UHGV virus genome: UHGV-0040495
Strand: one strand, 5' to 3'
Length of the DNA stretch: 26,910 bases
Origin: a virus
Of the stretch, positions 1,403 through 17,524 are shown one piece after another; the first letter of the stretch is position 1; each line of letters opens with the position of its first letter. A program made the position numbers and the translations under genes. The notes under the pieces were generated by a model. The model was not told the DNA's origin. It ran no database searches and was given only the letters and a program-made list of their open reading frames with translations.

Positions 1403-2434
1403 TTACGCGAATTCTTCCACGATCGCCATGCCAGTAGCACCATCACCACCGGTAAATGCCGTACCGGTAAACCCAAGGTCATACGCGCCACCACCACCGG
1501 ATCCGGGAGCTGCGCCAGCAATACCGGCCTGAGAACCCGCCCGGCCACCGCCGCCAAAATACGACGCCCCACCGTTGCCCGTCAGAAGGCTTGACCCTGT
1601 CTGGCCATCTGAGCCGGTACCACCGTTGATCCTGATATCTCCGGTCGCCGCCGTACCTCCGGCGCCGCCGGCGGTATTGGACACGCCTGACTTCACTCCT
1701 CCTTTCCCGCCAGGAGCTGAGAACAGGCTGGCAAACGAGGTGGCCCCACCATCCGCACCACTTACTGCGCCAACTCCGCCCTTACCACCCTTGCCGACAG
1801 TAATCGCATAAGAACTGGCAGCAGACAGGTCAACCCATACGATAATGGTCGCGCCCGCGCCGCCGCCAGCACCGGAGAAGGTTTCTGTATTGTTGGAGGC
1901 CTGGCAGCCGCCACCGCCGCCACCGGCACCGGTCAACGTTACTTTTGCATAACGGGCCAGAGGAGATCGCGTATAGGTTCCGTTTGCATAGAAAGCTTTT
2001 GGAGCGCCAAGTGAACGCCCGACAAAACCAGAGGAATCAGATATTCCGAGGTTATAACGGGCTTCATTTATCGCATCCTCACCGGCATCTTTAATTTCTG
2101 ACAGGTTATTGCTGATCTGCAGGAATGATAACAATGATCCGGCGGTCATTAAATTCGCGACAATGTCATTCGTTGACCATACGCGTGCCGTAGTTCCTTC
2201 CTGACCACGAATTACTGTCATCACGTCACCGGATACAGACGTGACGTGCATAATTTCAGAAATTGTTTTCGTGGCCGCGTCGGTTATCGTTAATTTGAAA
2301 TAACTCTGCCCAGATACAGGGGAAGGGAATAATGACCCCGCTCCAGTACCCACGGTAATAACGGTAGCGGACGCGCTAATACCCGCAGCGAGCACACTCT
2401 TTGCGTTATTATTGGCTAATAGCTTCAGCGCCAT
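1403..2434 (-). CDS. Tail fibre protein 2: conserved N-terminal anchor domain plus glycine-rich C-terminal domain
   Basis: 343 aa. The N-terminal ~100 aa (MALKLLANNNAKSVLAAGISA...SYFKLTITDAAT...QEGTTARVW..NDIVANLMTA) is paralogous to the N-terminus of the 715-aa fibre at 4143..6290. The C-terminal half is dense in poly-Gly motifs (GAGGGGGGC, GKGGKGG, GGAGGTAATG, GSGGGG). Start has GGGG 7 nt upstream. Confidence 0.6.
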   Translation of the reverse strand: MALKLLANNNAKSVLAAGISASATVITVGTGAGSLFPSPVSGQSYFKLTITDAATKTISEIMHVTSVSGDVMTVIRGQEGTTARVWSTNDIVANLMTAGSLLSFLQISNNLSEIKDAGEDAINEARYNLGISDSSGFVGRSLGAPKAFYANGTYTRSPLARYAKVTLTGAGGGGGGCQASNNTETFSGAGGGAGATIIVWVDLSAASSYAITVGKGGKGGVGAVSGADGGATSFASLFSAPGGKGGVKSGVSNTAGGAGGTAATGDIRINGGTGSDGQTGSSLLTGNGGASYFGGGGRAGSQAGIAGAAPGSGGGGAYDLGFTGTAFTGGDGATGMAIVEEFA

Positions 2435-2445
2435 ATATACCCCAG

Positions 2446-2763
2446 TTAAATAATAGAATTATCGGAACGAACAACGCAGATAATAAACGTCACGACGCCG
2501 ATGACAGTAACATCGTCCAGGGCTTCGCCATCGATCGCTTCACCATCTTCAGTAATCAGTGACTTTCCTCTCAGCGTGGCAAGCTCCGTCCCGCCGCCGT
2601 GCTGTATAAGTAGTTGGCTACCCTGCTTTGGCTTCAGGGAGATATCCAGTACAACGTAACCACCAGATCGCTCGAAAACTAGCGTGTTTGGGCCGACATT
2701 GCAGATCGAGTTAACAGACAACCTTTGCTCGACGTAGTCCGTCGCTGGTGAAGGGAATCCCAT
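2446..2763 (-). CDS. Hypothetical protein (105 aa) with hydrophobic C-terminal segment; accessory (moron) gene
   Basis: Track ORF is 2446..2796. I prefer the internal ATG at 2763..2761 because it is preceded by GGAGG 9 nt upstream and overlaps the stop of the upstream gene (TAATG). C-terminal VTVIGVVTFIICVV is hydrophobic. AT-rich relative to flanking phage genes. Confidence 0.4.
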   Translation of the reverse strand: MGFPSPATDYVEQRLSVNSICNVGPNTLVFERSGGYVVLDISLKPKQGSQLLIQHGGGTELATLRGKSLITEDGEAIDGEALDDVTVIGVVTFIICVVRSDNSII

Positions 2764-3002
2764 TAGATCACCCTCCCCATGTTGGCCATCAGCCATAAAC
2801 GGTTTTCGCTATGGTCCGGCGTCTTATCGACGAAATACGTCTGCTCGCGTGCGATCCAGGAGTTCGCCTCCACCTCGGATAAGTGGATGCCGCGCCGGAG
2901 CAGTGCGGTAACGAAGTCTCGGGTGTGAAGGTACTGGAACCCCTTGGAACTGCGCAAAATGGACTCGCGGAAAGCCGCGGCGATGTCTGACTGACGGTGC
3001 AT
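2763..3002 (-). CDS. Hypothetical protein (79 aa); first gene of a two-gene accessory operon
   Basis: Track ORF extends to 3155, but the extension lies in an AT-rich intergenic region. The ATG at 3002..3000 is preceded by AGAGG 7 nt upstream. Its stop overlaps the next gene's start by 1 nt. No recognisable motif. Confidence 0.4.
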   Translation of the reverse strand: MHRQSDIAAAFRESILRSSKGFQYLHTRDFVTALLRRGIHLSEVEANSWIAREQTYFVDKTPDHSENRLWLMANMGRVI

Positions 3003-3167
3003 GATCTGCCTCTGATTGATACTGTTTTTATATACAGTAGTTTCATCAAAGAGTCGGATCAATACTTGATGATGACTTTGTTTTATCTTCCGGTAGCCTC
3101 TTAAATTGCTTTTCACACAACTAATTGATACCAATACGTGTTTTATCCAAGACACTCCGCCACCAAA
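3003..3167. promoter_or_regulatory. AT-rich divergent intergenic region, probable promoter region for the flanking accessory genes
   Basis: About 165 bp of AT-rich sequence between a minus-strand start (3002) and a plus-strand start (3168). Contains TTGATG and TGTATATAA elements on the minus strand. No confident -35/-10 assignment. Confidence 0.25.
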
Positions 3168-3377
3168 ATGAGTACAAAAAGTGACACTCTTGTTCGTAGA
3201 ATACTACGTAAATCAGATGGCCTGGGCCTCAAGCTCAGCAAGTCTGGGATCGACTACGAGACCCTACAGTCACATGGATGGGCTGAAGTTTCAGATGGCA
3301 CTAACACGATAATGGTGGAGCTTACTGATGGCGGTAAATTGCAATTCTTCTCATGTGTCAAACATCTGAGCGCATAA
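3168..3377 (+). CDS. Hypothetical small protein (about 69 aa) transcribed opposite to the structural operon
   Basis: ATG at 3168 (the track uses GTG at 3138). Ordinary amino-acid composition but no clear Shine-Dalgarno and no recognisable motif. Convergent with the 252-aa gene. Confidence 0.3.
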   Translation: MSTKSDTLVRRILRKSDGLGLKLSKSGIDYETLQSHGWAEVSDGTNTIMVELTDGGKLQFFSCVKHLSA

Positions 3378-3381
3378 CTCG

Positions 3382-4140
3382 TTATTGCATCGCCAGTAAA
3401 AACTGAGAGACAGATATTTTTTCTGCTGAGGTAAGAATGCCGTTCATCAACAGACAAGACTTAATGTACTTGGTACTTGTTTCGCTGTTGTTATCAGTTT
3501 TTCTACCAAGCAGTACATTATTAGTACCTGCCACCCTGGTCCCGGGAAATGTTTCACTCCCGGAAATAAGAGTTCCAGTTTCAGGATTAAATATATCTAC
3601 TGTAACGGAGCCTTGAGTTATCGATGCGCAAAATGCAAACATATCTCCGACTGCGATTGCGGTTGGGAATGTAGCGTAAGCATAACCAGCTGAAGATTGT
3701 CCGTTATTTTGTCCAACACAAAAAAGACTTCCTGTGCCGTTTGTAAACCCTACCGAAAAACCACTTGCAGCAGACCCACTGCCAGCAAAATCTGCAATCA
3801 TATGGGCGTTAAGTGATGCGCCTGCTGGATTGCGCTTGGCAACCCCACAAACAGATAATGACAGAGTAGCCTTCTGATTAGTATCCATGTAATCTGTTGT
3901 ATTTACAGATATATATCCAGGAGAATTGTTTACATTTCCATGAATGACTGCCGGAGAATCTTTATTATAAGAGTTGTAGGTTATGTCGGTTACGGGGTCC
4001 CCAAAATAGAAACCAGCATAAGGAGTTGCACCTGTGGTTGGCAGGCCAATAAACCAGTTTGACACATCAAAGTCAGATAAAGTTTTCATTCCAGAGATAA
4101 CTGGAAGAGTGGCGTCTATATAAATAGCTGATATCGGCAT
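3382..4140 (-). CDS. Beta-rich Gly/Ser/Thr/Asn-rich protein translationally coupled to the esterase tailspike; possible fibre-associated adhesin or receptor-binding module
   Basis: 252 aa. Start lies 2 nt after the stop of the 715-aa fibre gene. Composition is typical of phage receptor-binding or distal-fibre domains. AT-rich codon usage. Confidence 0.4.
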   Translation of the reverse strand: MPISAIYIDATLPVISGMKTLSDFDVSNWFIGLPTTGATPYAGFYFGDPVTDITYNSYNKDSPAVIHGNVNNSPGYISVNTTDYMDTNQKATLSLSVCGVAKRNPAGASLNAHMIADFAGSGSAASGFSVGFTNGTGSLFCVGQNNGQSSAGYAYATFPTAIAVGDMFAFCASITQGSVTVDIFNPETGTLISGSETFPGTRVAGTNNVLLGRKTDNNSETSTKYIKSCLLMNGILTSAEKISVSQFLLAMQ

Positions 4141-4142
4141 TA

Positions 4143-6290
4143 TTAAGCTCCCAGGAAAAATTCTTTTTTGATCTTTCTCGTTAGTACATATGCGCCCAAG
4201 GCGCTAAGATGCAAGGCATCTTCCCACGCACCTCCTGAACTGCTATACACTTTGGGGAATAATTGATAACCACTAATGAAATTTACATTATATTCAACCG
4301 CTATTTCCCTCATTGCTTTATCGTATTCTGACAGTGCGGGTGTTCCTGTGGCGTTACACTGTGCAGGGGACATAAGGCAAATGCAAATATCAGGAGTTGC
4401 GCTTCTATATTTAGTAATGATTTCAATAATCCCAGATTTGTACTCAGCTAGCCCCTGACTCATCCGGAAGTCATTCGTTCCAAGAATAATAAAAAGGAGG
4501 TCTATATCAAGGTATTGAGCTACTGGCTTTATCCATGATGAAAAGTTGAAATAGTCACTTGCAAATGCTCCTCCATTACCCATCCTGGATACAGTCACCC
4601 CTGATGATATTGAGTTATTTTTACCATACATACCAAGAATGGAAACAACACCAGTACCGGTGCTTTGGATTGTCACCGTATGTGCAGTAGCGCTAAGTCC
4701 GCTGAAATCATACTTCTTGGCAGTCCCTGTATTCCCTCCCGTGATTGTTACAGGTGCATTGCTGTCGATGGTGATGGTGAACGTTCCAGACCCATCATAG
4801 TAAAATACCGAAAGATTTGTTACGGTCACGCCCGTCCATACGAGCGAACCAACAGTGTTGTTGTTGTAGTATCCGTTGCCATCAGGGCCACAGCCATACG
4901 GCGGAATGTTCGTGTTATTGCTGCCACCGTCATATTTCGTAAAGTTTGTTGCGGTTACTGGTGATATTCCAGACATGACACCATCTGTTCTGTTTGAACA
5001 ACTAATCCAGCCAGGGTCTTTGTATGTACCACCAAGAATATTAATTAAAGACTGAGGAATGGTGTTTTTCTCTGTCCACGAATCGCCGGTAAAAGCAATG
5101 TTTAGGCTGGTAGACTGGCCAGCAAAAATACGGCTATTTTTGAAAAGGAACTTGTACTGATCTCCTTCGATGAAGGAACGTACCGCATCAACTTCCCCAC
5201 CAGACACCAGGTTTTTGACATATTCCTGCAATACCGGGCCAAGACCTGGAGCATCGAATAGCCCACCATTAAACCAAGCATATACGTTCCCTTGTTGGTC
5301 ATATAAAAAAGGAAAGTAATAAGGTGAAAAGTCTCCTTGCGGTATAAACTTCTGGGCCCATTCGTTTGGAATTTCAGAAACAACCTGTGTAACATTTGGC
5401 CCCAGTCCGGCCACATCAAATTTTCCGCCATCAAACCATGCTGGCACCATACCATTCCTGTCAAAGAAGGCCGGGAAATAACCAGGCCTGTATTCACCTG
5501 GGACGAGGCGTTCATTAATTTTATTATCGATTGTTTTTGAAGAAGGAGAGATTACTCCTGTAGGCTGCAAAGTTCCGGAGTTGTTTATATATTCATTTGC
5601 AAGAGAGCTATCATCCGCGCTTGTCACCCAGCATTTCGCTCCTGGCTGTATGTTCCCTGCGTCAGCATCAGCCTGTGCCGCAGCCAGCGTCGGAAACTCG
5701 CGGGTTGTCCCTGTTATGGCCGCTGTACCCGGCTGCTTCGCCTGCAGTACGGCCACACCTGCTTTGTTTTGATACTGCCATGCAGCAGAAAGCGCATCTG
5801 GCCCCTGGGCTACCCAGAACGACTGGCCGTCAGTAGTTGCTGCCAGCCCTGCGATGGTGCCATCAGGATCGCTGGCAGTCTTATAGAACGTGAACTTATT
5901 CTGTGCGTAGTCAGAAGCGTTATTTGCAAACTCTTCAGCCTGTGCTGCTGATGCAGCTGCTTGCTGCATGTACTGCGCAATCACATTCAGCGTATCCGCC
6001 GTCATCATGTTGGCAACCATGTCGTTTGCCGCCCACGCACGCGCCAGCGTTCCTTCCTGCGCACGCTCAATCGTGAAGATGTCTCCAGCCTTAGCAGTCA
6101 CGTTCACGATCTCAACCTGTGAGCCGGTGGCGGCATCGGTGAGAGTGAGTTTAAAGTAGCTCTCGCCTGCCACAGCGTCAGGGAACTCGGCACCAGTTCC
6201 AGCGCTAACGATCAGCGACGTGTCGGTTGCGCTGATAGCAGAAGCCAGCGTGCTTTCTGCGTTGTTTGTAGCCAAAAGGGTTAGTGCCAT
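4143..6290 (-). CDS. Tail fibre/tailspike protein 1 with C-terminal SGNH (GDSL-type) esterase domain
   Basis: 715 aa. N-terminal anchor paralogous to fibre 2. C-terminal region carries SGNH blocks: FTGDSW (block I GDS), LGTNDF (block III GxND) and DALHLS (block V DxxH). GGAGG Shine-Dalgarno 5-6 nt upstream of the ATG at 6290. Confidence 0.75.
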   Translation of the reverse strand: MALTLLATNNAESTLASAISATDTSLIVSAGTGAEFPDAVAGESYFKLTLTDAATGSQVEIVNVTAKAGDIFTIERAQEGTLARAWAANDMVANMMTADTLNVIAQYMQQAAASAAQAEEFANNASDYAQNKFTFYKTASDPDGTIAGLAATTDGQSFWVAQGPDALSAAWQYQNKAGVAVLQAKQPGTAAITGTTREFPTLAAAQADADAGNIQPGAKCWVTSADDSSLANEYINNSGTLQPTGVISPSSKTIDNKINERLVPGEYRPGYFPAFFDRNGMVPAWFDGGKFDVAGLGPNVTQVVSEIPNEWAQKFIPQGDFSPYYFPFLYDQQGNVYAWFNGGLFDAPGLGPVLQEYVKNLVSGGEVDAVRSFIEGDQYKFLFKNSRIFAGQSTSLNIAFTGDSWTEKNTIPQSLINILGGTYKDPGWISCSNRTDGVMSGISPVTATNFTKYDGGSNNTNIPPYGCGPDGNGYYNNNTVGSLVWTGVTVTNLSVFYYDGSGTFTITIDSNAPVTITGGNTGTAKKYDFSGLSATAHTVTIQSTGTGVVSILGMYGKNNSISSGVTVSRMGNGGAFASDYFNFSSWIKPVAQYLDIDLLFIILGTNDFRMSQGLAEYKSGIIEIITKYRSATPDICICLMSPAQCNATGTPALSEYDKAMREIAVEYNVNFISGYQLFPKVYSSSGGAWEDALHLSALGAYVLTRKIKKEFFLGA
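5235..5492 (-). repeat. Internal tandem duplication (two ~31-aa repeats) within tail fibre 1
   Basis: YRPGYFPAFFDRNGMVPAWFDGGKFDVAGLGP (aa ~267-297) and FSPYYFPFLYDQQGNVYAWFNGGLFDAPGLGP (aa ~322-352) share the pattern YFP..D..G.V.AWF.GG.FD..GLGP. Confidence 0.55.
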
Positions 6291-6312: not shown

Positions 6313-6341
6313 AAAAAAACCCGCCGAAGCGGGTTAGTTTT
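6313..6341 (-). terminator. Rho-independent terminator downstream of the lipoprotein gene
   Basis: On the minus strand, stem ACCCGC/GCGGGT with a 4-nt loop is followed by a U7 tract. It lies between the lipoprotein stop (6359) and the fibre start (6290). Confidence 0.6.
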
Positions 6342-6358: not shown

Positions 6359-6991
6359 TTAATATGCATTTCGTATCGTTGTTGTTGCATCATCAATTCC
6401 GTTCTTGCTTAGAATCCAACATGATCTTGCAACATCAGCAAATTGACTTCTTACTTCAGGTGATAACCCTGGCTCTTGGTTAACGTCATTTAACATTTGC
6501 TCCAAAGAAATACCTCGCCTCTGACCGATACCAGCAGCACGGCAAAGGTTCCTTATATACAAATCAAACTCAGCTTGGTCATATTTATTTCTGGCCATAA
6601 CCAAGTAATAAACGCTATTGAGTTCATTCGATGCATTCATTACTTCCCTGCTTCTAACACATGAAACGTCTTTGTCGCACTTCTGATTATTTAGCCTATC
6701 AACCTCTTTTGAATAGTAATCATAAGTGCAACTTTCATCTTTTGAGTTGAAGCAGGTTAAAACAAGACCATTAAGAAATGCTTCATTCTCGCCATTCAAA
6801 CCAATTAACTCATTCCTTATTTTGGGGAAATTTTGCAATTGACCATTATATGATGGCATCCATTTAATTAAGGCATCTCTTTTTTCTTGCAAAGTTTCAG
6901 CAGAAGAAAAATCTCTAGATTTTTTATAAGCATTCGTTCCACATCCAGCAAGAAAAAATGAAATTGTTAATACAAGTATCATTCTTTTCAT
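6359..6991 (-). CDS. Cysteine-rich lipoprotein (moron-encoded); candidate superinfection-exclusion or envelope factor
   Basis: 210 aa. N-terminal MKRMILVLTISFFLAGCG is a signal peptide with lipobox L-A-G-C. Mature part has several Cys. AT-rich gene flanked by its own promoter-like element and terminator, inserted between baseplate and tail-fibre genes. Confidence 0.75.
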   Translation of the reverse strand: MKRMILVLTISFFLAGCGTNAYKKSRDFSSAETLQEKRDALIKWMPSYNGQLQNFPKIRNELIGLNGENEAFLNGLVLTCFNSKDESCTYDYYSKEVDRLNNQKCDKDVSCVRSREVMNASNELNSVYYLVMARNKYDQAEFDLYIRNLCRAAGIGQRRGISLEQMLNDVNQEPGLSPEVRSQFADVARSCWILSKNGIDDATTTIRNAY

Positions 6992-7011: not shown

Positions 7012-7051
7012 TTGATGCATAAATTCTACACTATTAGTGCATTGCATCAAT
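7012..7051 (-). promoter_or_regulatory. Candidate promoter with flanking inverted repeat (operator-like) upstream of the lipoprotein gene
   Basis: On the minus strand: -35 TTGATG (7050..7045), 16-nt spacer, -10 TAGAAT (7028..7023). Inverted repeat ATTGATGCA (7011-7019) and TGCATCAAT (7043-7051) brackets the promoter. Confidence 0.35.
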
Positions 7052-7751
7052 CAATAATCTCAACGGTTACTGTCTGATAGAACGGCATGTGCAGAAGCCC
7101 GCTATCCATGGCCTGCTTGAAGAATATGGCGAACTCGAAATCCTCGGTGATCACAAAGGCCGTATCCTTCTGGTTGTACTTCCTGGAGTTATAGGCCGAT
7201 GCGTTGTAGATGGCGCTACGCGTGAACCTACGCCGCCCCTTATAGATGGATATCACGATACCGCCATCCACAAACTGAATCGATATACTCCACCGCTGGT
7301 CATTGAGAATGTCAGTGCCATTCACTCCCAACAGGAACCGCAGAATACGCCGCTTTATCCATGGGATGGAGAAATAGAAGCCGTCACCTTTGTAAAAATT
7401 CCAGGTCATGATCCGCTTAAAAAGGTCATCGGAGACAACAACCTGGTTAGACTGGTCAATCACCCGGTACTCATTGAATGCCAGTTGGTTAAATTCGAAA
7501 GTGTTATATGGGCCTATCTCCTGCTGTTCGCTGCTGGAAATCACCGGCGGCAACACGCCATAGATGCCATGGGCAATCCATCTGAGCTGATCTCCGGTGT
7601 TGTAGTCACCGATAAAAATCGGCAGGTTGGCATTAACCATCCAGTCATAAATGCCCTGCGCCATCGAGTTATACGCAGTAAAAAACGCCCGCAGATTGTC
7701 ATCGTCGTTGTATTGCGTATACATATACGACCGGATGATATCGTCCAGCAT
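7047..7751 (-). CDS. Baseplate protein (P2 gpI-like / DUF2612-like position)
   Basis: 234 aa. Lies directly downstream of the J-like baseplate gene with a 1-nt gap. Assignment is by synteny (V-W-J-I-fibre order). The overlapping plus-strand ORF 7089..7802 is rejected. Confidence 0.5.
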   Translation of the reverse strand: MLDDIIRSYMYTQYNDDDNLRAFFTAYNSMAQGIYDWMVNANLPIFIGDYNTGDQLRWIAHGIYGVLPPVISSSEQQEIGPYNTFEFNQLAFNEYRVIDQSNQVVVSDDLFKRIMTWNFYKGDGFYFSIPWIKRRILRFLLGVNGTDILNDQRWSISIQFVDGGIVISIYKGRRRFTRSAIYNASAYNSRKYNQKDTAFVITEDFEFAIFFKQAMDSGLLHMPFYQTVTVEIID

Positions 7752-7752
7752 G

Positions 7753-9171
7753 CTATGCCCCTGTTACGATCACGCCATCCGACGCGATATAAAAATAACT
7801 GAACTTATCGCCGCTGATGATATTCGTCCCGGCATCCGGTGGCGTTATCACACCATTGATGGTGACCACGACGTTTAGAGTGCTGATCAGCCCCATGTCG
7901 ATTGTCGAGTTAATCGCCTGTAAGAATGCGTCTTTCAGGTTGTTAACGTTCAGCGGTTTCCCGGCGAATATGCCGTTCACATACTGAATCGTAGGCGCCG
8001 AGACCAGAGAGGCGACAGTGGCGTCAGTCAGGTAGTTAACGCTTTCGGTACCCCACTGATACGTCACTGTGACGCGCTGCAGCAATGGCGTCACGAACGG
8101 GATCACGTAGTTATCAGGCCAGTCATTCACCGTCACAGTATTGTTTCTGACGTTCGGCGTCACCTCGCCGCCGCCTCCCCAGGTCCCGGATGACGTGGTA
8201 TCAATCCCGATGGAAAAAGTGTGAGGAGACAGTACCGTCACGGTCAGAGGAACGTCATTAATGCCCGTCATCCCGGTAACGCCAGTGATCCGGATAACCT
8301 GGCCGTCAGTGTAGCCATGAGTCAGGTCTGTGCTGACGACGCCAGGATTTGCATTCGTGATCCCCGTTACGTTCAGTGAACACCCTTTCAGCCGGCTGAT
8401 ATCCCCCGCCGACTTATAGAGCGCGCCAGCAATATCGTAAACATCACCGCCTGCGCACATGACTATCCACTTATCCCCGTCCTGAATAACAGAAACCAGG
8501 CGCGCCTGCACGTTATCAAGGCTGGTGAGATGTTGCCGGATAAATCCAGGATATCCCTGAACTGTGGACATCTGAGCCTGCCATACTCGATCACGAAACT
8601 GATAATTCGTTTCCGGGTCAGCACCAGGAGTGCCGGCGATCGGGTTGGTGCAGGTAATGGTGACGTCAGAAGGAAGACTGGTGATTATCTGGTTAACCGT
8701 ATTTGCCGGTACTGCCCAAGTACCGGTCTCCGTTCCTTCGCATGACACACTGGCAGACACACCGGACGAGGAGATTATCGTCGCATCACTAACGGAATAC
8801 GTATGTGTGCCATCAGAAACAATAAAACCTTGTGGGATGACAAACCCAGCCGGGCCGGAAAACTGAATCGGTACCGTGGTAGTGCCAGCAGTTTTCTGGC
8901 CCGGGATACCTGCCTGCTGTGCGAGAAGCTCCAGCATGGCGAGGTTAGCCTTTAACGGACCCACTGAGTTAATCAGATCAACCCTCGCCTGATCGCAGAC
9001 GATAAGTGCGCCGACATCAGTGCTGGCCACGTCTTCAATCAGAGAGCCAGGCAAATCAGTTGTGAGTCCCGGAGATAGCGCAATAGCTTGGGAAACGAGC
9101 TGTGCTCGTAGCTCTTCCGCCGTCAGAGGAACCGGGCCCGCTGACGTATAGCTGACTGGTAAATCGCTCAT
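7753..9171 (-). CDS. Baseplate J-like (gp47/gpJ family) wedge protein
   Basis: 472 aa, a size and position typical for baseplate J. Start overlaps the upstream gene by 4 nt. Confidence 0.6.
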   Translation of the reverse strand: MSDLPVSYTSAGPVPLTAEELRAQLVSQAIALSPGLTTDLPGSLIEDVASTDVGALIVCDQARVDLINSVGPLKANLAMLELLAQQAGIPGQKTAGTTTVPIQFSGPAGFVIPQGFIVSDGTHTYSVSDATIISSSGVSASVSCEGTETGTWAVPANTVNQIITSLPSDVTITCTNPIAGTPGADPETNYQFRDRVWQAQMSTVQGYPGFIRQHLTSLDNVQARLVSVIQDGDKWIVMCAGGDVYDIAGALYKSAGDISRLKGCSLNVTGITNANPGVVSTDLTHGYTDGQVIRITGVTGMTGINDVPLTVTVLSPHTFSIGIDTTSSGTWGGGGEVTPNVRNNTVTVNDWPDNYVIPFVTPLLQRVTVTYQWGTESVNYLTDATVASLVSAPTIQYVNGIFAGKPLNVNNLKDAFLQAINSTIDMGLISTLNVVVTINGVITPPDAGTNIISGDKFSYFYIASDGVIVTGA

Positions 9172-9500: not shown

Positions 9501-10213
9501 TCGGTGATACTCCCGTTATACGTTGAAGTCGGCCCCCCGGTATCATTTCCATCGTTGCCGTTTGAATGCTCATGGCTGTTAAGCCAGGCCAGAAGCGACT
9601 GCCATCCGGCGTGCATGATTGCCGGGCTGGTACTGGCCACTGAATCCTGCAGATGCCCTGCCTCTCCTGAAAGGCTCCATTTGCTACCGGTCAGTGAAAA
9701 AACTGTCCCGCCAACGGTGACGGTGAAGCTGTCAGGTGTGGAAATAGCGATGCTGTCAGGCTTCAGGAGAAACGTCGTGTTGCTGCCGCTGTCGCGCAGC
9801 GTTACACCCTCCGGACCGTATACCGTCACCACCTGCCCGTCGACACCCTGCCACTCGGTATTACTGATCGGCAAAAAAACGAGGGCGCTTAAGTTTGCTG
9901 GCGGAGTCATATCTGCAATGCCGCCTCCCTGACCGCTAACCCCGCCAATGTAAGTATCTGCGGGGATAACAATCCCCTTATCTCCCGGCTGCATAGGGTA
10001 ACGAATATATTGAGGGCCAAATAAGGGGATAGTCACTTGCGGCAAAACATATGGGATATCCCTTAGCTCGAAGGAGACGGTGATCATATTCCCAGTTTGC
10101 TTAACCACGCTCGCCGGAAGAACTTTCCCTGATTTTTGAAGCGCATTTTCAATCTTTCTTTCAGTAAACCTGTTCATGCTTGAGGCAAAATTAAGCTTGT
10201 TGTCGATGCTCAT
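9497..10213 (-). CDS. Baseplate spike/assembly protein (gpV-like position)
   Basis: 238 aa with a Gly/Ser/Thr-rich beta-like C-terminal region. Assignment by synteny only. Confidence 0.4.
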   Translation of the reverse strand: MSIDNKLNFASSMNRFTERKIENALQKSGKVLPASVVKQTGNMITVSFELRDIPYVLPQVTIPLFGPQYIRYPMQPGDKGIVIPADTYIGGVSGQGGGIADMTPPANLSALVFLPISNTEWQGVDGQVVTVYGPEGVTLRDSGSNTTFLLKPDSIAISTPDSFTVTVGGTVFSLTGSKWSLSGEAGHLQDSVASTSPAIMHAGWQSLLAWLNSHEHSNGNDGNDTGGPTSTYNGSITE

Positions 10214-11247
10214 GCACTACCTGCCTTAATGAAAGGGGAAGCCTCAATAATTGTTACCCATGCCTCTGCCGTTGGTTGCCTGCTATTCCCTAACAGGCGA
10301 ACGGAGTTCACAATAAAGTCGCCAGTAAAGGCAGAGTCTTCTCGATACTGAGAGTACGAAGAGGCCTGTATCAACGGAGTGCTTTTTTTAGGCATCAGGA
10401 TGTGATCGCCAACCTGAATATCACCGCGCATTACGCACGCCATGCTGATTGTGTTAAATGCCACCCATGTCGGCTGCCCTATCAAATCCTTGAAATCTAT
10501 TTGGGTTGGGCTGTTGCTTCTGGCTACGGCGCTGGAAACAGAAGTCTTATCCGGGTGGTTATCATAATCGTTATCCCATACCCGGATCTCATTACCATTC
10601 ACTATTGCGATCTCTACACCAGAGTACCCGCTATCGCGAATTCTGGAACGTGAAAAAGCATTAAGGTCCTTGGCCAGGGTGACAATGTCATCACAAAACA
10701 GCCCCCGGTAATGATTAAGGATTAGCCGGTCGCTTATGTTGATATTGAACGTATACCCTCTGATGTTCATAAAACACTGCGTGAGGGCTACAGAAAGCTT
10801 CTGCCCCTCCTTCCAGTCAAAGGTTAAAGGAAGGGGTACGGGTTTGTTATTTGGCACGTTCTGGACAGGACCAACCACGATTATGAAGTCAAGTCGTAAC
10901 TCAATACCCTGCCAGTTACCAAAGACCTGATTTATCACGCCATCCAATACCAGTTTTGGTGCGGTAACCTTGCCAGCCAATGGCAGCCCGTCTTTCATCC
11001 CAAGGAATATTTTAATTTTTTTGCCAAAAAAATTCTGGCGAGCCTGCTGCATTTCTTTTGGGCCAATACCCCAGATGGTCAGGTGAGTTTCGCCCTGGGG
11101 AGTCGATTCACCGTACCTGAGGATATCAAACTCAATCATCAGGGCGCCGGGGTTGTAAACTCCGTTCTTATGGCTACTGTATTTTATCGTTCTTTCCGGA
11201 GAGGCACCTTCAGCAGGAATGGTTATCTCAATATCATAATATCTCAT
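10210..11247 (-). CDS. Baseplate hub / tail protein
   Basis: 345 aa, in the tightly coupled baseplate operon downstream of the tape measure. Assignment by synteny only. Confidence 0.4.
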   Translation of the reverse strand: MRYYDIEITIPAEGASPERTIKYSSHKNGVYNPGALMIEFDILRYGESTPQGETHLTIWGIGPKEMQQARQNFFGKKIKIFLGMKDGLPLAGKVTAPKLVLDGVINQVFGNWQGIELRLDFIIVVGPVQNVPNNKPVPLPLTFDWKEGQKLSVALTQCFMNIRGYTFNINISDRLILNHYRGLFCDDIVTLAKDLNAFSRSRIRDSGYSGVEIAIVNGNEIRVWDNDYDNHPDKTSVSSAVARSNSPTQIDFKDLIGQPTWVAFNTISMACVMRGDIQVGDHILMPKKSTPLIQASSYSQYREDSAFTGDFIVNSVRLLGNSRQPTAEAWVTIIEASPFIKAGSA

Positions 11248-11522: not shown

Positions 11523-12229
11523 GGCCCTACCCCCAACTTACCCAATAGGCCGGTTATTGCTTCCGATACAGAGCTCCCGAGAGGCGTGTTGCCAAGAGCA
11601 TTGGCGGTATTAGTCCAGGATGGGTCGGTTACCATATCCCCGGCGCCAATCTTGTTTAAAAAATTGTTCACGGCCTGCTCTGCACCATTATCGGTTATCA
11701 GTGGCTGCTCGAAATCCCATATCCATGAACGCTGTGGTAATGGATCGTTACCAGAGGTAATGTCCCTCACTACACGCAAAATGCAGTTGCTATAGATAAC
11801 GGATGGGGTGGCGACGATAAACGTGCCGCCTAAGTTAGAATGCGCCTGAAGGACAGACTGCAAAGCACTCATAGTGACGAGCTTTGTCATCGCCCCGGTG
11901 TTTTCATTGACCGGGGCCTCCATTACCAACGAAACGCGCAAAGGCTGAGCAAGCAAGGCGTTCGCAGCTACTACCTGGTTGGCGAAAGGGTATCTGGCAA
12001 TTTCATAATCAACCATTGTGGCGCCCTGAACCGGTCGCCAGTGGCAGAAATATTTATCCAGATCGGTTAGGTTTATGGCTCCTCCAAGCAGCCCCGTAAC
12101 AAAGCTCGCGCTCTGTGTCAAAGCGACGATCGGGAGCATTCCTCCAGGAATGGCCTGCGCTATCCCTCCGCAAAGTATTACTGGGGATATTTCAAAACCC
12201 AGCTTATACATTTCACGTGTGAATCCCAT
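11519..12229 (-). CDS. Tail protein immediately downstream of the tape measure (DNA-circulation/hub-like position)
   Basis: 236 aa. Its start overlaps the tape-measure stop by 1 nt. Assignment by synteny only. Confidence 0.4.
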   Translation of the reverse strand: MGFTREMYKLGFEISPVILCGGIAQAIPGGMLPIVALTQSASFVTGLLGGAINLTDLDKYFCHWRPVQGATMVDYEIARYPFANQVVAANALLAQPLRVSLVMEAPVNENTGAMTKLVTMSALQSVLQAHSNLGGTFIVATPSVIYSNCILRVVRDITSGNDPLPQRSWIWDFEQPLITDNGAEQAVNNFLNKIGAGDMVTDPSWTNTANALGNTPLGSSVSEAITGLLGKLGVGP

Positions 12230-14046
12230 TACCTCGCCCCCAATTGCGCTGAAGTTACCACTGCATTCCCACCGGTATTGTTATAGATCTGAATGACTGT
12301 GCTCTCAGAAACTCTGCTACCAGCCCCTTCTTTTTGAGATATAGCAGAAATGAGTTTCGCGATAACCTGAGGATCATTGAGATTCAGTTTCTGATTCTCA
12401 TTAAATCCAGTAGTTTTAACCACATGCCGAATATACTCAGCGGTATTATTTTCCTTAGGAGGAGCCCATTTTCTTGCAATATCTCCTACCGTATTTATTC
12501 CTTTAGCGCCATACATTTGAAGTTGCTTTGTCGCCGCCAGTACGCCTTCATCCAGCGTTGGGAAGACGGCAAATTTACCGCTTCTCGTATTCTCGCTGCT
12601 GTATCCTTCAGCCCACCGCAGATTTCCCGGATTATTAAATCGATCTGCAATAGTCCTGTTTCTGTCGGAAGTATTTGCAGGTGTGGGATCAACAGCTTTA
12701 ACGGTTCCATCTTCAAAGAAGCGCCTAACACCCTTGAGCCAGCCCCATACATGCGGGTCATCATTGCTTCCAGGAGTATAGGATTTTCCCGTTTTCGGAT
12801 CGATGATGGTGCTTGGGCTCAACATCGTTGACCCGGATGATATATCCGCAGTAGAGATACTCGCTTTCCCTGTTACCCAATCAATAACCTTGCCAATTAG
12901 ATTTCCCATTTTCTCTACTTTGTCCATAAAGTTGCTTACATCTGTGGAAAATTCAGGAGAAGCGAGGTAATTACCGAATCGCTCAATGCCGCCGGCAAGC
13001 GCATCAATCCACTTGCCGAGTTCGGGGGATTTCAGGACGGTATCGATCGCGCCTGACAGCGCATCAGACAGTTTTCTCAGTTGAGGTGTGAGAGGACCCA
13101 GGCCGCGCACAAACGTGTTTCTGATGCTCTGGCTGCTGTAATCGAGCTGGACGTTAAAATCCTGCCACTGACGCGCCTGCTGGTCGGTAATTTGCAACAT
13201 ACGCGCATCCTGCTGCGCGCGCTTCTCCATGGCGGTGATCTCCTCATCGCTCATGTTTTTGAAGCGGTTCAGGTCGTCCAGCGTAAAGAAGTTTGTCAGG
13301 CCGTGCGCCTGTGCGCCCTGCAGCGTGCTGCCGCTCTGCACGAAAATATCGCGCGCATTACGGATCATCTGCGGGAGCAGTTTGGCAGGGTCCTGGTCGG
13401 GATTGTTAATCCCCATCGCCTGAAACGTCCAGCGCTTCGACAGGTCCATCTGGGAATCGCGGATAGCGCCCAGCGTCCCCGCCGGATTACCCAGCGCTTT
13501 CTGGTAGTTTATGGCGGTGGAATCAAGTGCGCCGATACTCGTCCCAAGCCCGAGAGAAGTAAACCGCTGGGCACCGGTGGTGGCAGCCAGGCGGTTGATG
13601 CCAAACAGGCCGCCAACGCCAAGGACGCCGGTAAATATCCCGACAATACCACCCCAGGACAGAAGGCTGGCCGTCGCTTCCTTGATATGCCCTGCCAGCG
13701 ATTTAGCGTCTTTCGTCGCATCGCTGAGGAAGCCCTTCGCAGATCGGGTGCTTTTGTTGAATTCGTCCTGCTTTTTCTTCGAGTCTTCCAGGTTGGTATT
13801 GAGCCGATCGATACCGCTGTTGATGGTCAGGATGGCCTCGGCCACGGCATTAAACTCCGCGCCTAACTCCTTCGCCTCACCTTTGGCTTTTTCGGTCTGC
13901 TTGCTGCTTTCACCAATACCAACGGCAGCCACTCGCCAGGCTTCCGGTAAATCATCCAGCGCGCTCTGGTACTCGCGAAACCTTTCCATAAACGCGACAA
14001 ACTTGTCGTCATTTACGTCAATGTCGACGATCGACTTAGCTACCAT
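12229..14046 (-). CDS. Tail tape measure protein
   Basis: Track ORF is 12229..14112. I prefer the ATG at 14046..14044 (MVAKSIVDIDV...) because it has AAGAGG 9 nt upstream and the chaperone frameshift product terminates just inside it. About 605 aa; long helical N-terminal region; lies after the chaperone genes as expected. Confidence 0.75.
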   Translation of the reverse strand: MVAKSIVDIDVNDDKFVAFMERFREYQSALDDLPEAWRVAAVGIGESSKQTEKAKGEAKELGAEFNAVAEAILTINSGIDRLNTNLEDSKKKQDEFNKSTRSAKGFLSDATKDAKSLAGHIKEATASLLSWGGIVGIFTGVLGVGGLFGINRLAATTGAQRFTSLGLGTSIGALDSTAINYQKALGNPAGTLGAIRDSQMDLSKRWTFQAMGINNPDQDPAKLLPQMIRNARDIFVQSGSTLQGAQAHGLTNFFTLDDLNRFKNMSDEEITAMEKRAQQDARMLQITDQQARQWQDFNVQLDYSSQSIRNTFVRGLGPLTPQLRKLSDALSGAIDTVLKSPELGKWIDALAGGIERFGNYLASPEFSTDVSNFMDKVEKMGNLIGKVIDWVTGKASISTADISSGSTMLSPSTIIDPKTGKSYTPGSNDDPHVWGWLKGVRRFFEDGTVKAVDPTPANTSDRNRTIADRFNNPGNLRWAEGYSSENTRSGKFAVFPTLDEGVLAATKQLQMYGAKGINTVGDIARKWAPPKENNTAEYIRHVVKTTGFNENQKLNLNDPQVIAKLISAISQKEGAGSRVSESTVIQIYNNTGGNAVVTSAQLGAR

Positions 14047-14742
14047 TGAAGAAACCTCTTTCTTTGAGCGCGGCGAGTAGGTAGCGCTGCCGGTACTGCG
14101 CCGGGCTTGCATACTCCTCGCCGGTGATCTCCCTTATCACCTGCCAGAAGCCCTCATTAGACGCCCAGTCTAAGAGGGTATAAATGACGTTTCCGGCTGG
14201 GCATTCTGGGTCGGGGTATCGGTATCCGGCTTCGACGTCTGCAACGAATCGCGGAACGCCGTACCGCTCGATGAGGTTAGTTGCCCATCGTACATTTTGA
14301 TCACCGTTCCCACGGTCGGCGCGATCAGGTTTGCCTTCTGAATAGCAGAGGAAACCATAAAAAAAACCACTTCGCCTTCGACCTCGCGATACTCATCAGG
14401 GTCGATAATCCCCTGCTTGAATGCCACCTCAAGAGGCGTGGTTTTCCACTGGCCGCCGACGTTATGGATAACGACCGTCAGTCGCTGAATTTCATCAACG
14501 ATGTTCGGACCTGTCCGACCGTTATCGATTTCCGCTTTCAGGCTCTGCCTCAGCATCATCGCGGCGATTCTGGCGGCGCCAAGACCACCCACCTGCGAGA
14601 TGAATTTTGTGAACAGGTTCCCCAGCAGGATGCAGTGTTCTTCCACCACCTCATAGGGGAATGGCGTCACATGCAGGTATACGATCGAGCCGTCTTCGCG
14701 GGTAACGTTGGTGACCAGATTCAGTTTCTTGTCAATTTTCAT
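14036..14742 (-). CDS. Tail assembly chaperone, predicted -1 frameshift product (GT-like, about 235 aa)
   Basis: Slippery T TTT TTT heptamer at 14365..14359 (minus strand). I translated the -1 frame by hand: it is open for 107 codons from the slip site to a TAA at 14038..14036, 8 nt inside the tape-measure gene. The extension reads as ordinary protein (...DWASNEGFWQVIREITGEEYASPAQYRQRYLLAALKERGFFNGS). Confidence 0.5.
14170..14742 (-). CDS. Tail assembly chaperone (G-like, unshifted product)
   Basis: 190 aa, between tail tube and tape measure. Contains the slippery T8 tract at codons 127-128. Confidence 0.6.
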   Translation of the reverse strand: MKIDKKLNLVTNVTREDGSIVYLHVTPFPYEVVEEHCILLGNLFTKFISQVGGLGAARIAAMMLRQSLKAEIDNGRTGPNIVDEIQRLTVVIHNVGGQWKTTPLEVAFKQGIIDPDEYREVEGEVVFFMVSSAIQKANLIAPTVGTVIKMYDGQLTSSSGTAFRDSLQTSKPDTDTPTQNAQPETSFIPS

Positions 14743-14745
14743 GCA

Positions 14746-15183
14746 TTACACCCACATGTTGTCGTTGGTGACCATATAGCCGCTGATGGTTACCACAAAA
14801 GCCGGGTCCATCCCGCTGAAAGCCAGCTCGTTGAAGTTGACCAGATAGCAGTTGAGCAGCGTGATATTGCCGAACGTCGTTGCATCCGGCGTTACCACGA
14901 TTTCACCCAGCGACGTGTCGGTTAAAAAGCGTTGCCGGTAGCTTTCGCCCAGCCCCTGAGTTTTCAGGAGATGCACGGTCAGCGTTACCTGCTGATACGG
15001 CGCCTGGCTGCCGACGGTTCCGGTCATCGTAGGGATGATATCGGTCGCCGGGCCGTCCGGACGCAGGCTAATGCCGTCCTTTGCCAGGTACGACGCCGAG
15101 ACGTTCAGCGCCGGTGTATCCGTGACGGAAAGAGCCCCGCGTACGCGGTTAAGAAAGCCCTGCGGTACTAATGGGTTCGCCAT
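14746..15183 (-). CDS. Tail tube protein
   Basis: 145 aa, immediately downstream of the sheath gene with a 3-nt gap. Typical sheath-tube order. Confidence 0.55.
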   Translation of the reverse strand: MANPLVPQGFLNRVRGALSVTDTPALNVSASYLAKDGISLRPDGPATDIIPTMTGTVGSQAPYQQVTLTVHLLKTQGLGESYRQRFLTDTSLGEIVVTPDATTFGNITLLNCYLVNFNELAFSGMDPAFVVTISGYMVTNDNMWV

Positions 15184-15186
15184 TTT

Positions 15187-16581
15187 TTACGCCCCTACAA
15201 AGTTCGTTACGTTCACGTTAAACGTGATGGATTCGAAGCCGCGGCGCGGCGTCATGACGGCGCTCAGCCCGTTATATTTTCCTTCCTGGTAATCGGAGGG
15301 GTTCAGGCTGTTGTAGTTACTGAACGGCACGGCGTTGATCACGGCGTTGCCGGCGTAAGTGCCTTTGTCATACTCGGTGTTGAAATCTTCCTGCGTCAGT
15401 TGCGTGTCGATGACGCGACCGAGGATCAGCCCGTAGCTGATGCCATTACGCATGGTTTTCAGAGCGCGACGCTGCAGGCGGTCAATGCCCTTCTGCTCGT
15501 AGTACAGCGGGTTAACGGTCGTGTTGGAGCCGTTGATGATTTCATTCGCCAGGTCGAGCTCAAGGTTGATCGCCGTCCACGCCACCGAATACCAGTAGTT
15601 GAACGGGTTACCGTCGAGCATGCGGCCGGTGAACAGCACTTTGTTACTGAGACCACCTTCGGCGCCGGTACCGATGTAGTTGATGTTGCTGTTCTGAAGC
15701 GATTTCAGCAGTGCGCTGTTGCCTTCCAGCGGATACTCAGTCAGGCCGTACATAAAGCGGTACGACATCGGCGGCACCATGTTGCTCGACCCCGGGTCGT
15801 TTGCCAGGGATGACTGGAACGGGCCGGCCATGGAAAACTCGCTAGCCGGAATATCCGGAGCCTCGACGCCAGCAAAGACAGTTTTGTTTTTCGTCGCTGT
15901 CCACGCTTCATAGGTCGCGATCGTTGTGGTGACAAAGAAGTAAACCAGACTTCCCGGCGAAGTATAGAGGCTGGTCAGGGTTTTAAATTCATCGACCGAA
16001 TCCCATTCGCGCGGCACCAGATAGGAGAAAAACTTCTGGTAGGTGTTACCCAGGGAGACGTCTTCAGCAATGAAGGTTGTCAGCGCTGCGACAGCTGCCT
16101 CCATGGACACATCGCCCAGTTCCAGCACATAAACAGCCCGCGTTTTACCCTGGGCCCAGAACGAAGTATTCATCTGGGAAATTTCGGTCTGCACTACCGT
16201 TTTTACCGTTCCCATTGCCGTTGCGGTTCCTGGGTTGGTCGTCAGCGGATAGGTGAAGGTGTTGGCTCCTGTCACCGTAGCGGTATAGGCGCCATTGTAC
16301 CCCGCCGGAGTCGCGCCGGAGATGATCACCGGGACCTGCGACCCGTTAGCCCATCCGTGAGCGGCAGCCAGCGTGACGGTTACCACGCCAGTAGCCCAGG
16401 CGAGCGTCGAGATGGTTTTCGCCGGTGCAAGGATGTCGGCCAGGTCGGTTTCACTGGTCAGCAGCTGATATTCACCGGCATTCAGCGTCGTGCCGCCCAT
16501 AGAAATCATCGCCCCGGACTTTAACAACTGCGAGGGCTTCGGCGGATTCGTCACCGACACGTTAATATTAACAATTGCCAT
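15187..16581 (-). CDS. Tail sheath protein
   Basis: 464 aa, a size and position typical of contractile-tail sheath, followed by the tube gene. Confidence 0.65.
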   Translation of the reverse strand: MAIVNINVSVTNPPKPSQLLKSGAMISMGGTTLNAGEYQLLTSETDLADILAPAKTISTLAWATGVVTVTLAAAHGWANGSQVPVIISGATPAGYNGAYTATVTGANTFTYPLTTNPGTATAMGTVKTVVQTEISQMNTSFWAQGKTRAVYVLELGDVSMEAAVAALTTFIAEDVSLGNTYQKFFSYLVPREWDSVDEFKTLTSLYTSPGSLVYFFVTTTIATYEAWTATKNKTVFAGVEAPDIPASEFSMAGPFQSSLANDPGSSNMVPPMSYRFMYGLTEYPLEGNSALLKSLQNSNINYIGTGAEGGLSNKVLFTGRMLDGNPFNYWYSVAWTAINLELDLANEIINGSNTTVNPLYYEQKGIDRLQRRALKTMRNGISYGLILGRVIDTQLTQEDFNTEYDKGTYAGNAVINAVPFSNYNSLNPSDYQEGKYNGLSAVMTPRRGFESITFNVNVTNFVGA

Positions 16582-16585
16582 TTAC

Positions 16586-17524
16586 TTATTTCTCCGGGTC
16601 AATGGACGGAATTGCAGACGTGATCAACTGGCGCGCTAAATTACGCATCCGTTGCTGGTAGTAATTGATTTTGAATTTGATGGTCTTACGCATGGCAATG
16701 ATGTTGAGCTCGTTCTGAGTGACTCGCTCATCCTGCACGACGGGAATATTCATGATCCCCATCTCCGGGGCATCGCCGGTCGTGTAGTCCTGCACATACC
16801 GCACAAAGTCTTCAATGCTGGCGTTACGCAGGCCGGTGACCGAAAGCGTCACATCTTCCGATACCAGCTGATACTGGTTTTGCTTCTCGTCCAGATAGAA
16901 CGCGCCGGCGATCGGTGACGTGTTACTGCATTTCACTGTCGCATAGGGCGGCGAAAGGTTCTGCGTTGAGAGCATCGCCGGGAACATCGGCATGTACTGA
17001 TTCAGGGCCAACCAGATCGGCAACGAGCTCGACACCACCACGTCAGAGAGGTCTATGTCATCCGCAGAGTTGATGATCTGCGACCGCATGTGCGGAAAAA
17101 TAGCCTCTCCGGTGTAGTGGTACAGGTTCGCCGGTTCATTCAGCCCGGTACGCCGGGAGAACGAGAACTGAACGCCAAAAAACTCGCCGATGTACAGCAC
17201 CTCTGACCCGATGTCGTTAAACGGGTCGATGTCCGCCTGTGCGGTGAACGTCACCACGTTGCGATCGTAAAGTTGCTCGTCGTCCTGAATGGTTTCTGTC
17301 GTCAGGTGCAAATAACCTTTCACATCCACCGTATCCGGCTCATTGTTCGGATCGTCAGACAGGACCGAGGCTTTCACCCAGAACACGAAGCCATCGAGCG
17401 GAAGTACCTTTCTGATGTACTTCGTGAACGTCACCACCTGGAACCGGCTCAGATCATCCAGCCCCTGTGTCAGGGTAGCGTTAAGCTCGGTTTTGGCGTT
17501 CTGTAACTCACTCAGGGAAGGCAT
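16586..17524 (-). CDS. Neck/tail-completion protein (hypothetical)
   Basis: 312 aa, located between the head-tail joining genes and the sheath. Function by position only. Confidence 0.35.
   Translation of the reverse strand: MPSLSELQNAKTELNATLTQGLDDLSRFQVVTFTKYIRKVLPLDGFVFWVKASVLSDDPNNEPDTVDVKGYLHLTTETIQDDEQLYDRNVVTFTAQADIDPFNDIGSEVLYIGEFFGVQFSFSRRTGLNEPANLYHYTGEAIFPHMRSQIINSADDIDLSDVVVSSSLPIWLALNQYMPMFPAMLSTQNLSPPYATVKCSNTSPIAGAFYLDEKQNQYQLVSEDVTLSVTGLRNASIEDFVRYVQDYTTGDAPEMGIMNIPVVQDERVTQNELNIIAMRKTIKFKINYYQQRMRNLARQLITSAIPSIDPEK

Follow-up and report, generated by a model that had tools for sequence, protein, structure and literature searches.

The 26,910-nt viral genome UHGV-0040495, analysed over its whole length (hereafter the window, to which all coordinates refer), is a temperate, contractile-tailed prophage of the Felixviridae (Chronis/RothC, Nakavirus group) sited at a tRNA-Arg gene. 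We detected two receptor-binding protein genes on its minus strand, a long one of 715 aa (4143-6290) and a short one of 343 aa (1403-2434), at the positions where a sequence-only reading of this DNA had placed them. The two proteins begin with homologous N-terminal modules and end in unrelated C-terminal domains, and the pair is conserved among close relatives. The Felixviridae are a newly created family that includes the phages Chronis and RothC/RothD and is reported to be widespread in the gut, mostly as prophages of Enterobacteriaceae, and in its descriptions the long protein alone is singled out as a possible receptor-binding protein (bioRxiv 10.1101/2024.12.02.626457; PMC12629751). Term searches of either version of the description found no mention of the glycine-rich short fibre.

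Two fibre proteins with homologous N-termini

The ungapped N-terminal alignment on which the sequence-only reading was built proved sound: BLASTP aligned residues 1-101 of both proteins with 58/101 identities (57%, compared with the ~50% first estimated; positives 76%, E = 1e-32 with composition-based statistics), and found no further significant similarity between them, in line with the complete divergence described for the rest of the two proteins. The Smith-Waterman score of this alignment was 292, compared with 32.7 +/- 5.9 (maximum 61) over 2000 shuffles, and at z = 44 above the shuffles the similarity is therefore homology; a compositional artefact is ruled out by this score and the E value together. 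We delimited the module as residues 1-105 of each protein, with the long-type paralogue at 5976-6290 and the short-type paralogue at 2120-2434, both on the minus strand. The two are 58% identical at the nucleotide level and their synonymous sites are saturated, which rules out recent duplication or gene conversion; judged by their sequences, they are old paralogues. The first seven codons of both genes (6270-6290 and 2414-2434) encode MALxLLA, which resembles the heptapeptide MALxxLV of the second receptor-binding protein of KP34-like Klebsiella podoviruses, a likeness that may be coincidence. In those podoviruses MALxxLV is thought to attach the second receptor-binding protein (PMC6872550).

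Residues 1-105 were covered by no Pfam or NCBIfam model in scans of both fibres, and fall within the PHROG tail-fibre families 6427, 8469, 30299, 25419 and 19311. With just the 110-residue module as query, a word-indexed search gave only 14 short fragments, which were not informative; an exhaustive profile search was used in its place. Among proteins clustered at 50% identity, this matched 18,828 representatives at E<=1e-3, of which 9,358 reached 1e-10. Nearly all of the best 150 library matches listed begin at residue 1-7 of proteins that range from 85 to 876 aa. In phage genomes the module matched 190 places spread over 143 records, and most of these matches are annotated as tail fibres. The phages concerned are myo-, sipho- and podoviruses whose hosts include Pseudomonas, Ralstonia, Burkholderia, Escherichia, Klebsiella, Erwinia and Yersinia. 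The C-termini joined to the module include Collar, gp53-like, Gly_rich_2 and esterase domains. Among chains in the Protein Data Bank (PDB), a phmmer search matched 8jov_1 to residues 8-118 of the long protein (E 6.3e-10) and to the short protein (E 5e-7); this entry, a "putative tail fiber protein" in 18 chains, is the sole solved homologue of the module, and is 100% identical (98 residues compared, tblastn) to the 439-aa fibre of the Ralstonia podophage GP4. These matches indicate that the module is a bona fide and very widespread tail-fibre N-terminus, which presumably fixes the trimer to the tail periphery.

The long protein, an esterase tailspike, belongs by sequence to PHROG tail-fibre families, including phrog_14987, and is annotated as an SGNH/GDSL hydrolase in E. 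coli RefSeq genomes. The start of its gene is preceded, at a distance of 5 nt, by the strong ribosome-binding site GGAGGAG. The module is followed by a semi-conserved, exchangeable shaft region (5511-5975, minus strand, ~residues 106-260; PHROGs 38670, 19652 and 31000) that is 42-96% identical among long-type proteins and missing from some, and then by a linker (5151-5510, minus strand) with two copies of a ~31-aa motif at residues 269-299 and 324-354; this motif, YFPxxxDxxGxVxAWFxGGxFDxxGLGP, was read by eye from the translation and was not flagged by a BLAST self-comparison. The C-terminal SGNH esterase that had been proposed is confirmed by a match of residues 589-700 to Pfam Lipase_GDSL_2 (PF13472; 41.9 bits, cut-off 32.9, E 2e-10). 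The whole domain spans ~residues 381-715 (4146-5150, minus strand) and has intact catalytic motifs, GDS at 402-404 (block I), GTND at 604-607 (block III) and DALH at 691-694 (block V), with a ~200-residue insertion separating blocks I and III, as well as a weak PDB match to the arylesterase 3dci. The long protein is thus plausibly an active esterase, and most likely would bind and de-O-acetylate a surface polysaccharide of the host, either O-antigen or capsule. Prokhorov et al. in 2017 reportedly identified gp63.1 of the E. coli phage G7C as an SGNH esterase acting on O-antigen.

Six loci with a single fibre (L048, L061, L065, L066, L075 and L050) hold, downstream of it, a gene of 346-382 aa near the fibre and integrase, usually on the opposite strand, whose N-terminus, judged by eye, resembles an acyltransferase-3 membrane protein of the O-antigen acetylase type, a notable counterpart to a de-acetylating spike. 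In RothC (L002, 4961-6259), the slot after the long fibre holds a 432-aa BNR_4 sialidase-like propeller (Pfam E 3e-19) and a 225-aa protein, and enzymatic activity in that phage may therefore come from a separate subunit.

The short fibre matches PHROG tail-fibre families 863, 6202 and 454, and its TNF-like and polyglycine receptor-binding domain occupies ~residues 136-343 (1406-2029, minus strand). The polyglycine C-terminus noted earlier corresponds to Pfam Gly_rich_2 (PF21722) at residues 153-340, with 52.5 bits (cut-off 24.3). An AlphaFold2 (AF2) monomer of this protein reached a pLDDT >90 over residues 140-343, and Foldseek matched the tip to the fibre of the cyanophage Pam3 (7ypx_A, E 2.7e-8, probability 1.0; 7yfw_a, 5.7e-6), to the Bxb1 tail tip (9d93, E 6.5e-8) and, more weakly, to the glycine-rich domains of ALK/LTK. 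A Gly_rich_2 tip also terminates P2-type fibres in Serratia, E. coli and Morganella, and the short-type module is elsewhere fused to Collar and gp53-like tips. By this fold, the TNF-like and polyglycine tip would bind a cell-surface receptor.

Both genes are under strong purifying selection, with dN/dS values of 0-0.09 for the long-type module and 0.03-0.19 for both halves of the short gene against orthologues, and the short fibre belongs to a cluster of 797 member sequences. These values, the intact open reading frames (ORFs) and the size of the cluster rule out that either gene is a pseudogene or remnant, so the concern that one copy might be a non-expressed leftover falls away.

We also detected an identical 343-aa gene in two unannotated phage records, OZ035745.1 (L085, labelled Wanchaivirus) and OZ035751.1 (L086, labelled Lambdavirus; region of interest ~12000-16650 of each locus), whose tail and baseplate genes are unrelated to those of the window and whose integrase is of the lambda type. 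Both also hold the UmuD'-like and 79-aa genes described below and a 27-codon remnant of IntS. The adjoining long fibre in these records is without the shared module, and in one of them it has an 83%-identical copy of the spike shaft.

The fibre pair across the family

Scanning viral contigs with the module returned 80 loci. By the identity of the Baseplate_J protein (J), a close clade (94-99%) and more distant clades (57-78%) can be told apart. Every long-enough locus of the close clade carries both fibres, which answers the question of whether related phages have one or two: long-type and short-type genes occur together in the window and in 28 further close-clade loci, among which Chronis, RothC and the E. 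coli locus are included, and close-clade loci with one match stop inside the long gene or <=0.7 kb past it. The long-type module is 96-100% identical in most relatives (78-90% in three outliers) despite differing C-termini, and the short-type module is 81-100% identical within its class, with 55-58% identity between the classes. In the distant clades, the baseplate genes are immediately followed by a single fibre of 260-500 aa, downstream of which no further large candidate was found. The module of this single fibre shares 61-69% identity with the long type and 62-71% with the short type.

Clustering of the C-termini grouped 20 of the 21 short-type proteins with single-type proteins, and divided the 29 proteins of the long class into at least 17 unrelated groups. 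The classes differ by class-specific fixed differences at 21 positions of the module, and 44 of its ~104 positions are invariant across all classes. A neighbour-joining tree of ~100 residues, rooted with GP4, weakly placed short and single types together with the long type outside; of the 21 class-specific positions, the consensus of the single fibres has the long-type residue at 7, the short-type residue at 5 and a residue of neither class at 9, and the module alone does not settle which paralogue is ancestral. Pairs at 57-59% identity are also found in two other lineages, locus L077 and, as neighbouring genes, the Pantoea phage PdC23. From these patterns the duplication can be read as old or recurrent, and the short fibre looks like the core fibre of the family, with the long gene as a hypervariable spike slot.

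Genes between and around the fibres

The two fibre genes are not adjacent, as the sequence-only reading had pointed out, and ~1.7 kb (2435-4142) with three minus-strand genes lies between them. Its term for this interval, an accessory island, is half right: it suits an SOS operon of two genes, which is optional, but not the 252-aa gene, which is probably part of the spike system. The 252-aa gene (3382-4140, minus strand) starts 2 nt after the spike stop codon and encodes an all-beta (beta-sandwich) protein that co-varies with the C-terminal module of the spike among relatives. This co-variation suggests that its product is probably a spike-specific accessory protein with a role in carbohydrate binding or assembly.

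A 380-nt gap after the 252-aa gene leads to a LexA (SOS) box, TACTGTATATAAAAACAGTA (3020-3039, minus strand), which is a perfect match to TACTG(TA)5CAGTA, is the sole such box in the 26.9-kb window, and lies 17 nt upstream of the ATG of a 79-aa gene. LexA boxes are present at matching positions in ~30 related loci, and those that were checked immediately precede this same operon. Its first gene encodes the 79-aa protein (2763-3002, minus strand; phrog_3893), annotated as a CDS in E. coli and RothC, and the stop codon of this gene overlaps the start of the next one (TAATG), indicating translational coupling to a 105-aa gene (2446-2763, minus strand) that ends 11 nt ahead of the short-fibre ATG. 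The 105-aa protein resembles UmuD'/HumD: it matches phrog_3469 ("UmuD-like") at E 1e-44, and its RothC homologue is annotated as "DNA polymerase V subunit UmuD." It scored below the NCBIfam cut-offs for HumD (46.5 bits, cut-off 120) and UmuD (29.7 bits, cut-off 110) and had no Pfam Peptidase_S24 match. Because the curated cut-offs were missed and only PHROG matches, we call it UmuD'-like rather than a member of the family.

The SOS operon is located after the fibre in single-fibre relatives. In relatives without it (L010, L022-L024, L029 and L035), the short fibre is found directly after the spike genes, and the operon is therefore an optional insert, which may add SOS-driven transcription of the short fibre. 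PADLOC returned no defence-system match for the genes of the island or for the lipoprotein gene described below. Antisense to these genes, within the 380-nt gap that separates the SOS operon from the 252-aa gene, we detected a 69-aa ORF (3168-3377, plus strand) that had no Pfam, NCBIfam or PADLOC match. It lacks an obvious ribosome-binding site, and the E. coli relative has no annotation for it.

The window opens with the tRNA-Arg(CCT) gene (2-76), which is followed by an IntS-type integrase on the plus strand (202-1398). The integrase and the short fibre are convergent, with 4 nt between their stop codons (1396-1405) and no terminator, and short-fibre transcription would therefore enter int antisense. 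The remainder of the window is the late region, including sheath, tube, tape measure, hub, J and a 234-aa wedge-associated protein. The nearest cultured relatives are the Klebsiella phages vB_Kpn_Chronis and RothC/RothD, with 88-94% DNA identity over the matched parts, and J and the 234-aa protein are 98% identical to their counterparts in the structural block of Chronis/RothC. Of 5,426 complete E. coli genomes, 23 hold, next to this same tRNA, >=80% of the initial 9.2 kb of the window, and both fibre genes are annotated intact in those loci.

Upstream of the spike, the gene order from J to the 234-aa protein to the fibre is kept in all family members. J (7753-9171, minus strand, 472 aa; Pfam Baseplate_J, phrog_6) has an insertion at residues ~268-338 that matches the FCCH domain of ubiquitin-activating enzyme E1 (Pfam E 4e-14), and this insertion explains why the entire baseplate protein goes in RefSeq by the name "ubiquitin-activating E1 FCCH domain-containing protein." The homologue of the 234-aa protein (7047-7751, minus strand) is labelled DUF2612 in the record of phage PdC23, a label that Pfam hmmscan did not reproduce. 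The 345-aa baseplate hub (10210-11247, minus strand) occurs in two forms across L004-L036, ~99% or ~47% identical, while adjoining baseplate genes are 94-100% identical, pointing to a sharp recombination mosaic within the baseplate module. Between the baseplate genes and the spike lies a gene for a 210-aa predicted lipoprotein (6359-6991, minus strand) with a signal peptide and the lipobox LAGC, in what looks like a typical moron slot because relatives hold other genes there (e.g., Chronis gp22) or none. A strong hairpin and T-run terminator (6318-6335) follows the lipoprotein gene just upstream of the spike ribosome-binding site.

Proposed attachment of the two proteins to the virion

GP4 and the Bcep22-like podophages carry, by sequence, the same N-terminal module on fibres with unrelated C-termini, as here. 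In GP4, adjacent fibres of 439 and 295 aa share the module at 47% identity over 102 residues, and the Bcep22-like Burkholderia podophages gave 2-4 genome matches to it. The GP4 virion has three sets of fibres, which hang from a neck ring made of a 93-aa Ig-like adaptor (PMC11445570), and Bcep22-like phages encode 3-4 tail fibre genes (PMC9144972). These multi-fibre sets make several fibres sharing this module in one genome an established pattern. Both kinds of phage have short tails and adjacent fibre genes, whereas the window encodes a contractile tail with a J-type baseplate and its fibre genes are split.

Our overall explanation, to which we assign a probability of about 0.7, is that the products of both genes are receptor-binding proteins of the virion that are built on a shared type of attachment module, one a core fibre and the other filling a spike slot. 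The module would fix each trimer to the tail periphery, presumably at the wedge formed by J and the 234-aa protein of a simple baseplate as the putative docking platform. The 252-aa product would act as a module-specific partner of the spike, and the paralogous modules would keep the long and short proteins from mixing. This explanation retains from the sequence-only reading the two receptor-binding proteins with a homologous N-terminal module and unrelated C-termini; its further proposals, that both attach to the same virion site or form a branched fibre, found no support.

As the likeliest arrangement, though at somewhat less than even odds, we further suggest that each wedge offers two non-equivalent positions, one for a set of spikes and one for a set of fibres, which would allow two-step or dual-receptor adsorption. 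Consistent with two sites are the 21 class-specific fixed differences, set against 44 invariant positions, and the lack of gene conversion at 58% nucleotide identity; such fixed divergence would be explained no less well by a pair of specialised docking sites, or by a need to avoid mixed trimers, than by one common site. Pam3 offers a precedent: in its minimal wedge two fibres occupy non-equivalent positions, which makes 12 fibres on a baseplate (PMC9942802). The tip of the Pam3 fibre gp24 (7ypx, 7yfw) has the same TNF-like and glycine-rich fold as the short fibre, and both phages have simple J-type baseplates. Pam3 uses one fibre protein twice, with an alpha-helical N-terminus, disulfide attachment and a downstream chaperone, whereas the window encodes two proteins with another N-terminal module and has no chaperone gene after the short fibre.

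The sequences show homology, the identities of the domains, conserved pairing and purifying selection, whereas the presence of the proteins in the virion, their docking partner, the site number and the substrates are matters that we infer. Several points weigh against our overall explanation. The shared module was modelled at a pLDDT of 34-50 in the AF2 monomer, which is unreliable. J and the 234-aa protein are of equal lengths in dual- and single-fibre relatives, and therefore no extra docking domain marks a second site. No homologue of the 93-aa GP4 adaptor was found among all window ORFs (best E 0.4), and the docking chemistry of GP4 is therefore not transferable here. Finally, the occurrence of the 343-aa cassette in two records with unrelated baseplates means either that the module is promiscuous and the cassette exchanged, or that those copies are orphans.

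A fuller version of the two-position arrangement, which we consider doubtful, is that an old duplication gave rise to anchors specialised for two wedge positions, so that each particle would carry six exchangeable enzymatic spikes and six core glycine-rich fibres, and that single-fibre relatives fill both positions with one protein. The core fibre would in this version be SOS-transcribed: lying 11 nt behind the LexA operon, it would be transcribed from the first moments of SOS, independent of late transcription.

Rather unlikely, in our view, is that both proteins compete for six identical baseplate sites, giving a stochastic mixture on each particle or differing particle populations. The homology of the modules, with 44 of ~104 positions invariant across all classes, would suit such a shared site, as would the single-fibre wedge proteins of equal length with no visible added docking feature. 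Each paralogue is held near-constant by purifying selection, yet the two keep their 21 fixed differences and have not been homogenised in three lineages (the window, L077 and PdC23; 57-59%). Moreover, a minimal wedge such as that of Pam3 can offer two distinct sites, and under competition the stoichiometry of an essential fibre would hinge on expression ratios.

A branched fibre, in which the long protein alone sits on the baseplate and the short fibre rides on it, is improbable. Anchor-branch systems such as those of KP32/KP34-like Klebsiella phages and the E. coli phage G7C (gp66/gp63.1) likewise have two receptor-binding proteins per particle, and the dual systems of Klebsiella phages are usually built in this way (PMC6872550). 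Their proteins are modular, structural at the N-terminus and specificity-determining at the C-terminus, as here; the first protein alone is anchored, and the second joins a T4 gp10-like branching domain via a short conserved peptide (PMC6872550). Unlike those second proteins, which carry the peptide and not a full 100-residue module, the short fibre here carries a complete module of 105 residues. Pfam and NCBIfam scans of the long protein, being sequence scans only, detected no T4 gp10-like domain, and single-fibre relatives mount the same kind of fibre without any long protein. A branch on the variable part of the long protein is also made less likely by the short-type module, which remains 97-100% identical where the long shaft drops to 48-63%, and 87-93% identical where the shaft is unmatched (L020, L035). 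The long fibre with an 83%-identical shaft segment beside an identical short gene, in a phage without a Felixviridae baseplate, speaks for branching. The comparison of module and shaft disfavours branching from the variable part of the long protein, not from its constant module.

The invertible tail-fibre genes of phages Mu and P1 join a constant N-terminus to alternative receptor-binding C-termini and so widen host range, one alternative being expressed at a time through DNA inversion of a shared gene. In contrast, the window has two complete genes that are presumably expressed simultaneously. We set aside alternative expression by inversion, since both genes are complete with their own starts; no invertase turned up among the genes examined, and no search for inverted repeats was made.

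The least probable alternative, that the 343-aa gene is an orphan cassette, or is expressed in the lysogen or under SOS and has a role outside the virion, could draw on its place 11 nt downstream of the LexA-box operon and apart from other tail genes, and on the intact transfer of the 79-aa, UmuD'-like and 343-aa cassette into phages with other baseplates, but is countered by the low dN/dS in both halves of the gene, its presence in every close relative, including cultured lytic-capable phages, its position directly behind the spike genes in the six relatives without the SOS operon, the match of its module and tip to the sole fibre of single-fibre relatives, and a product with a fibre fold and no signal peptide.

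Two fibres on one attachment module thus represent a real but fairly ordinary route to recognising two host structures, and because multi-fibre phages that share an N-terminal module are already documented, current ideas are not overturned. A module of ~105 residues has come into view that is found in ~18,800 protein clusters, has one solved representative and is without a Pfam model. For the cultured phages Chronis and RothC/D, the analysis provides a concrete map for host-range prediction and engineering, with two receptor-binding proteins in each member of the group, a short glycine-rich fibre as the conserved core and a long gene as a plug-in slot whose C-terminal modules are of at least 17 kinds.

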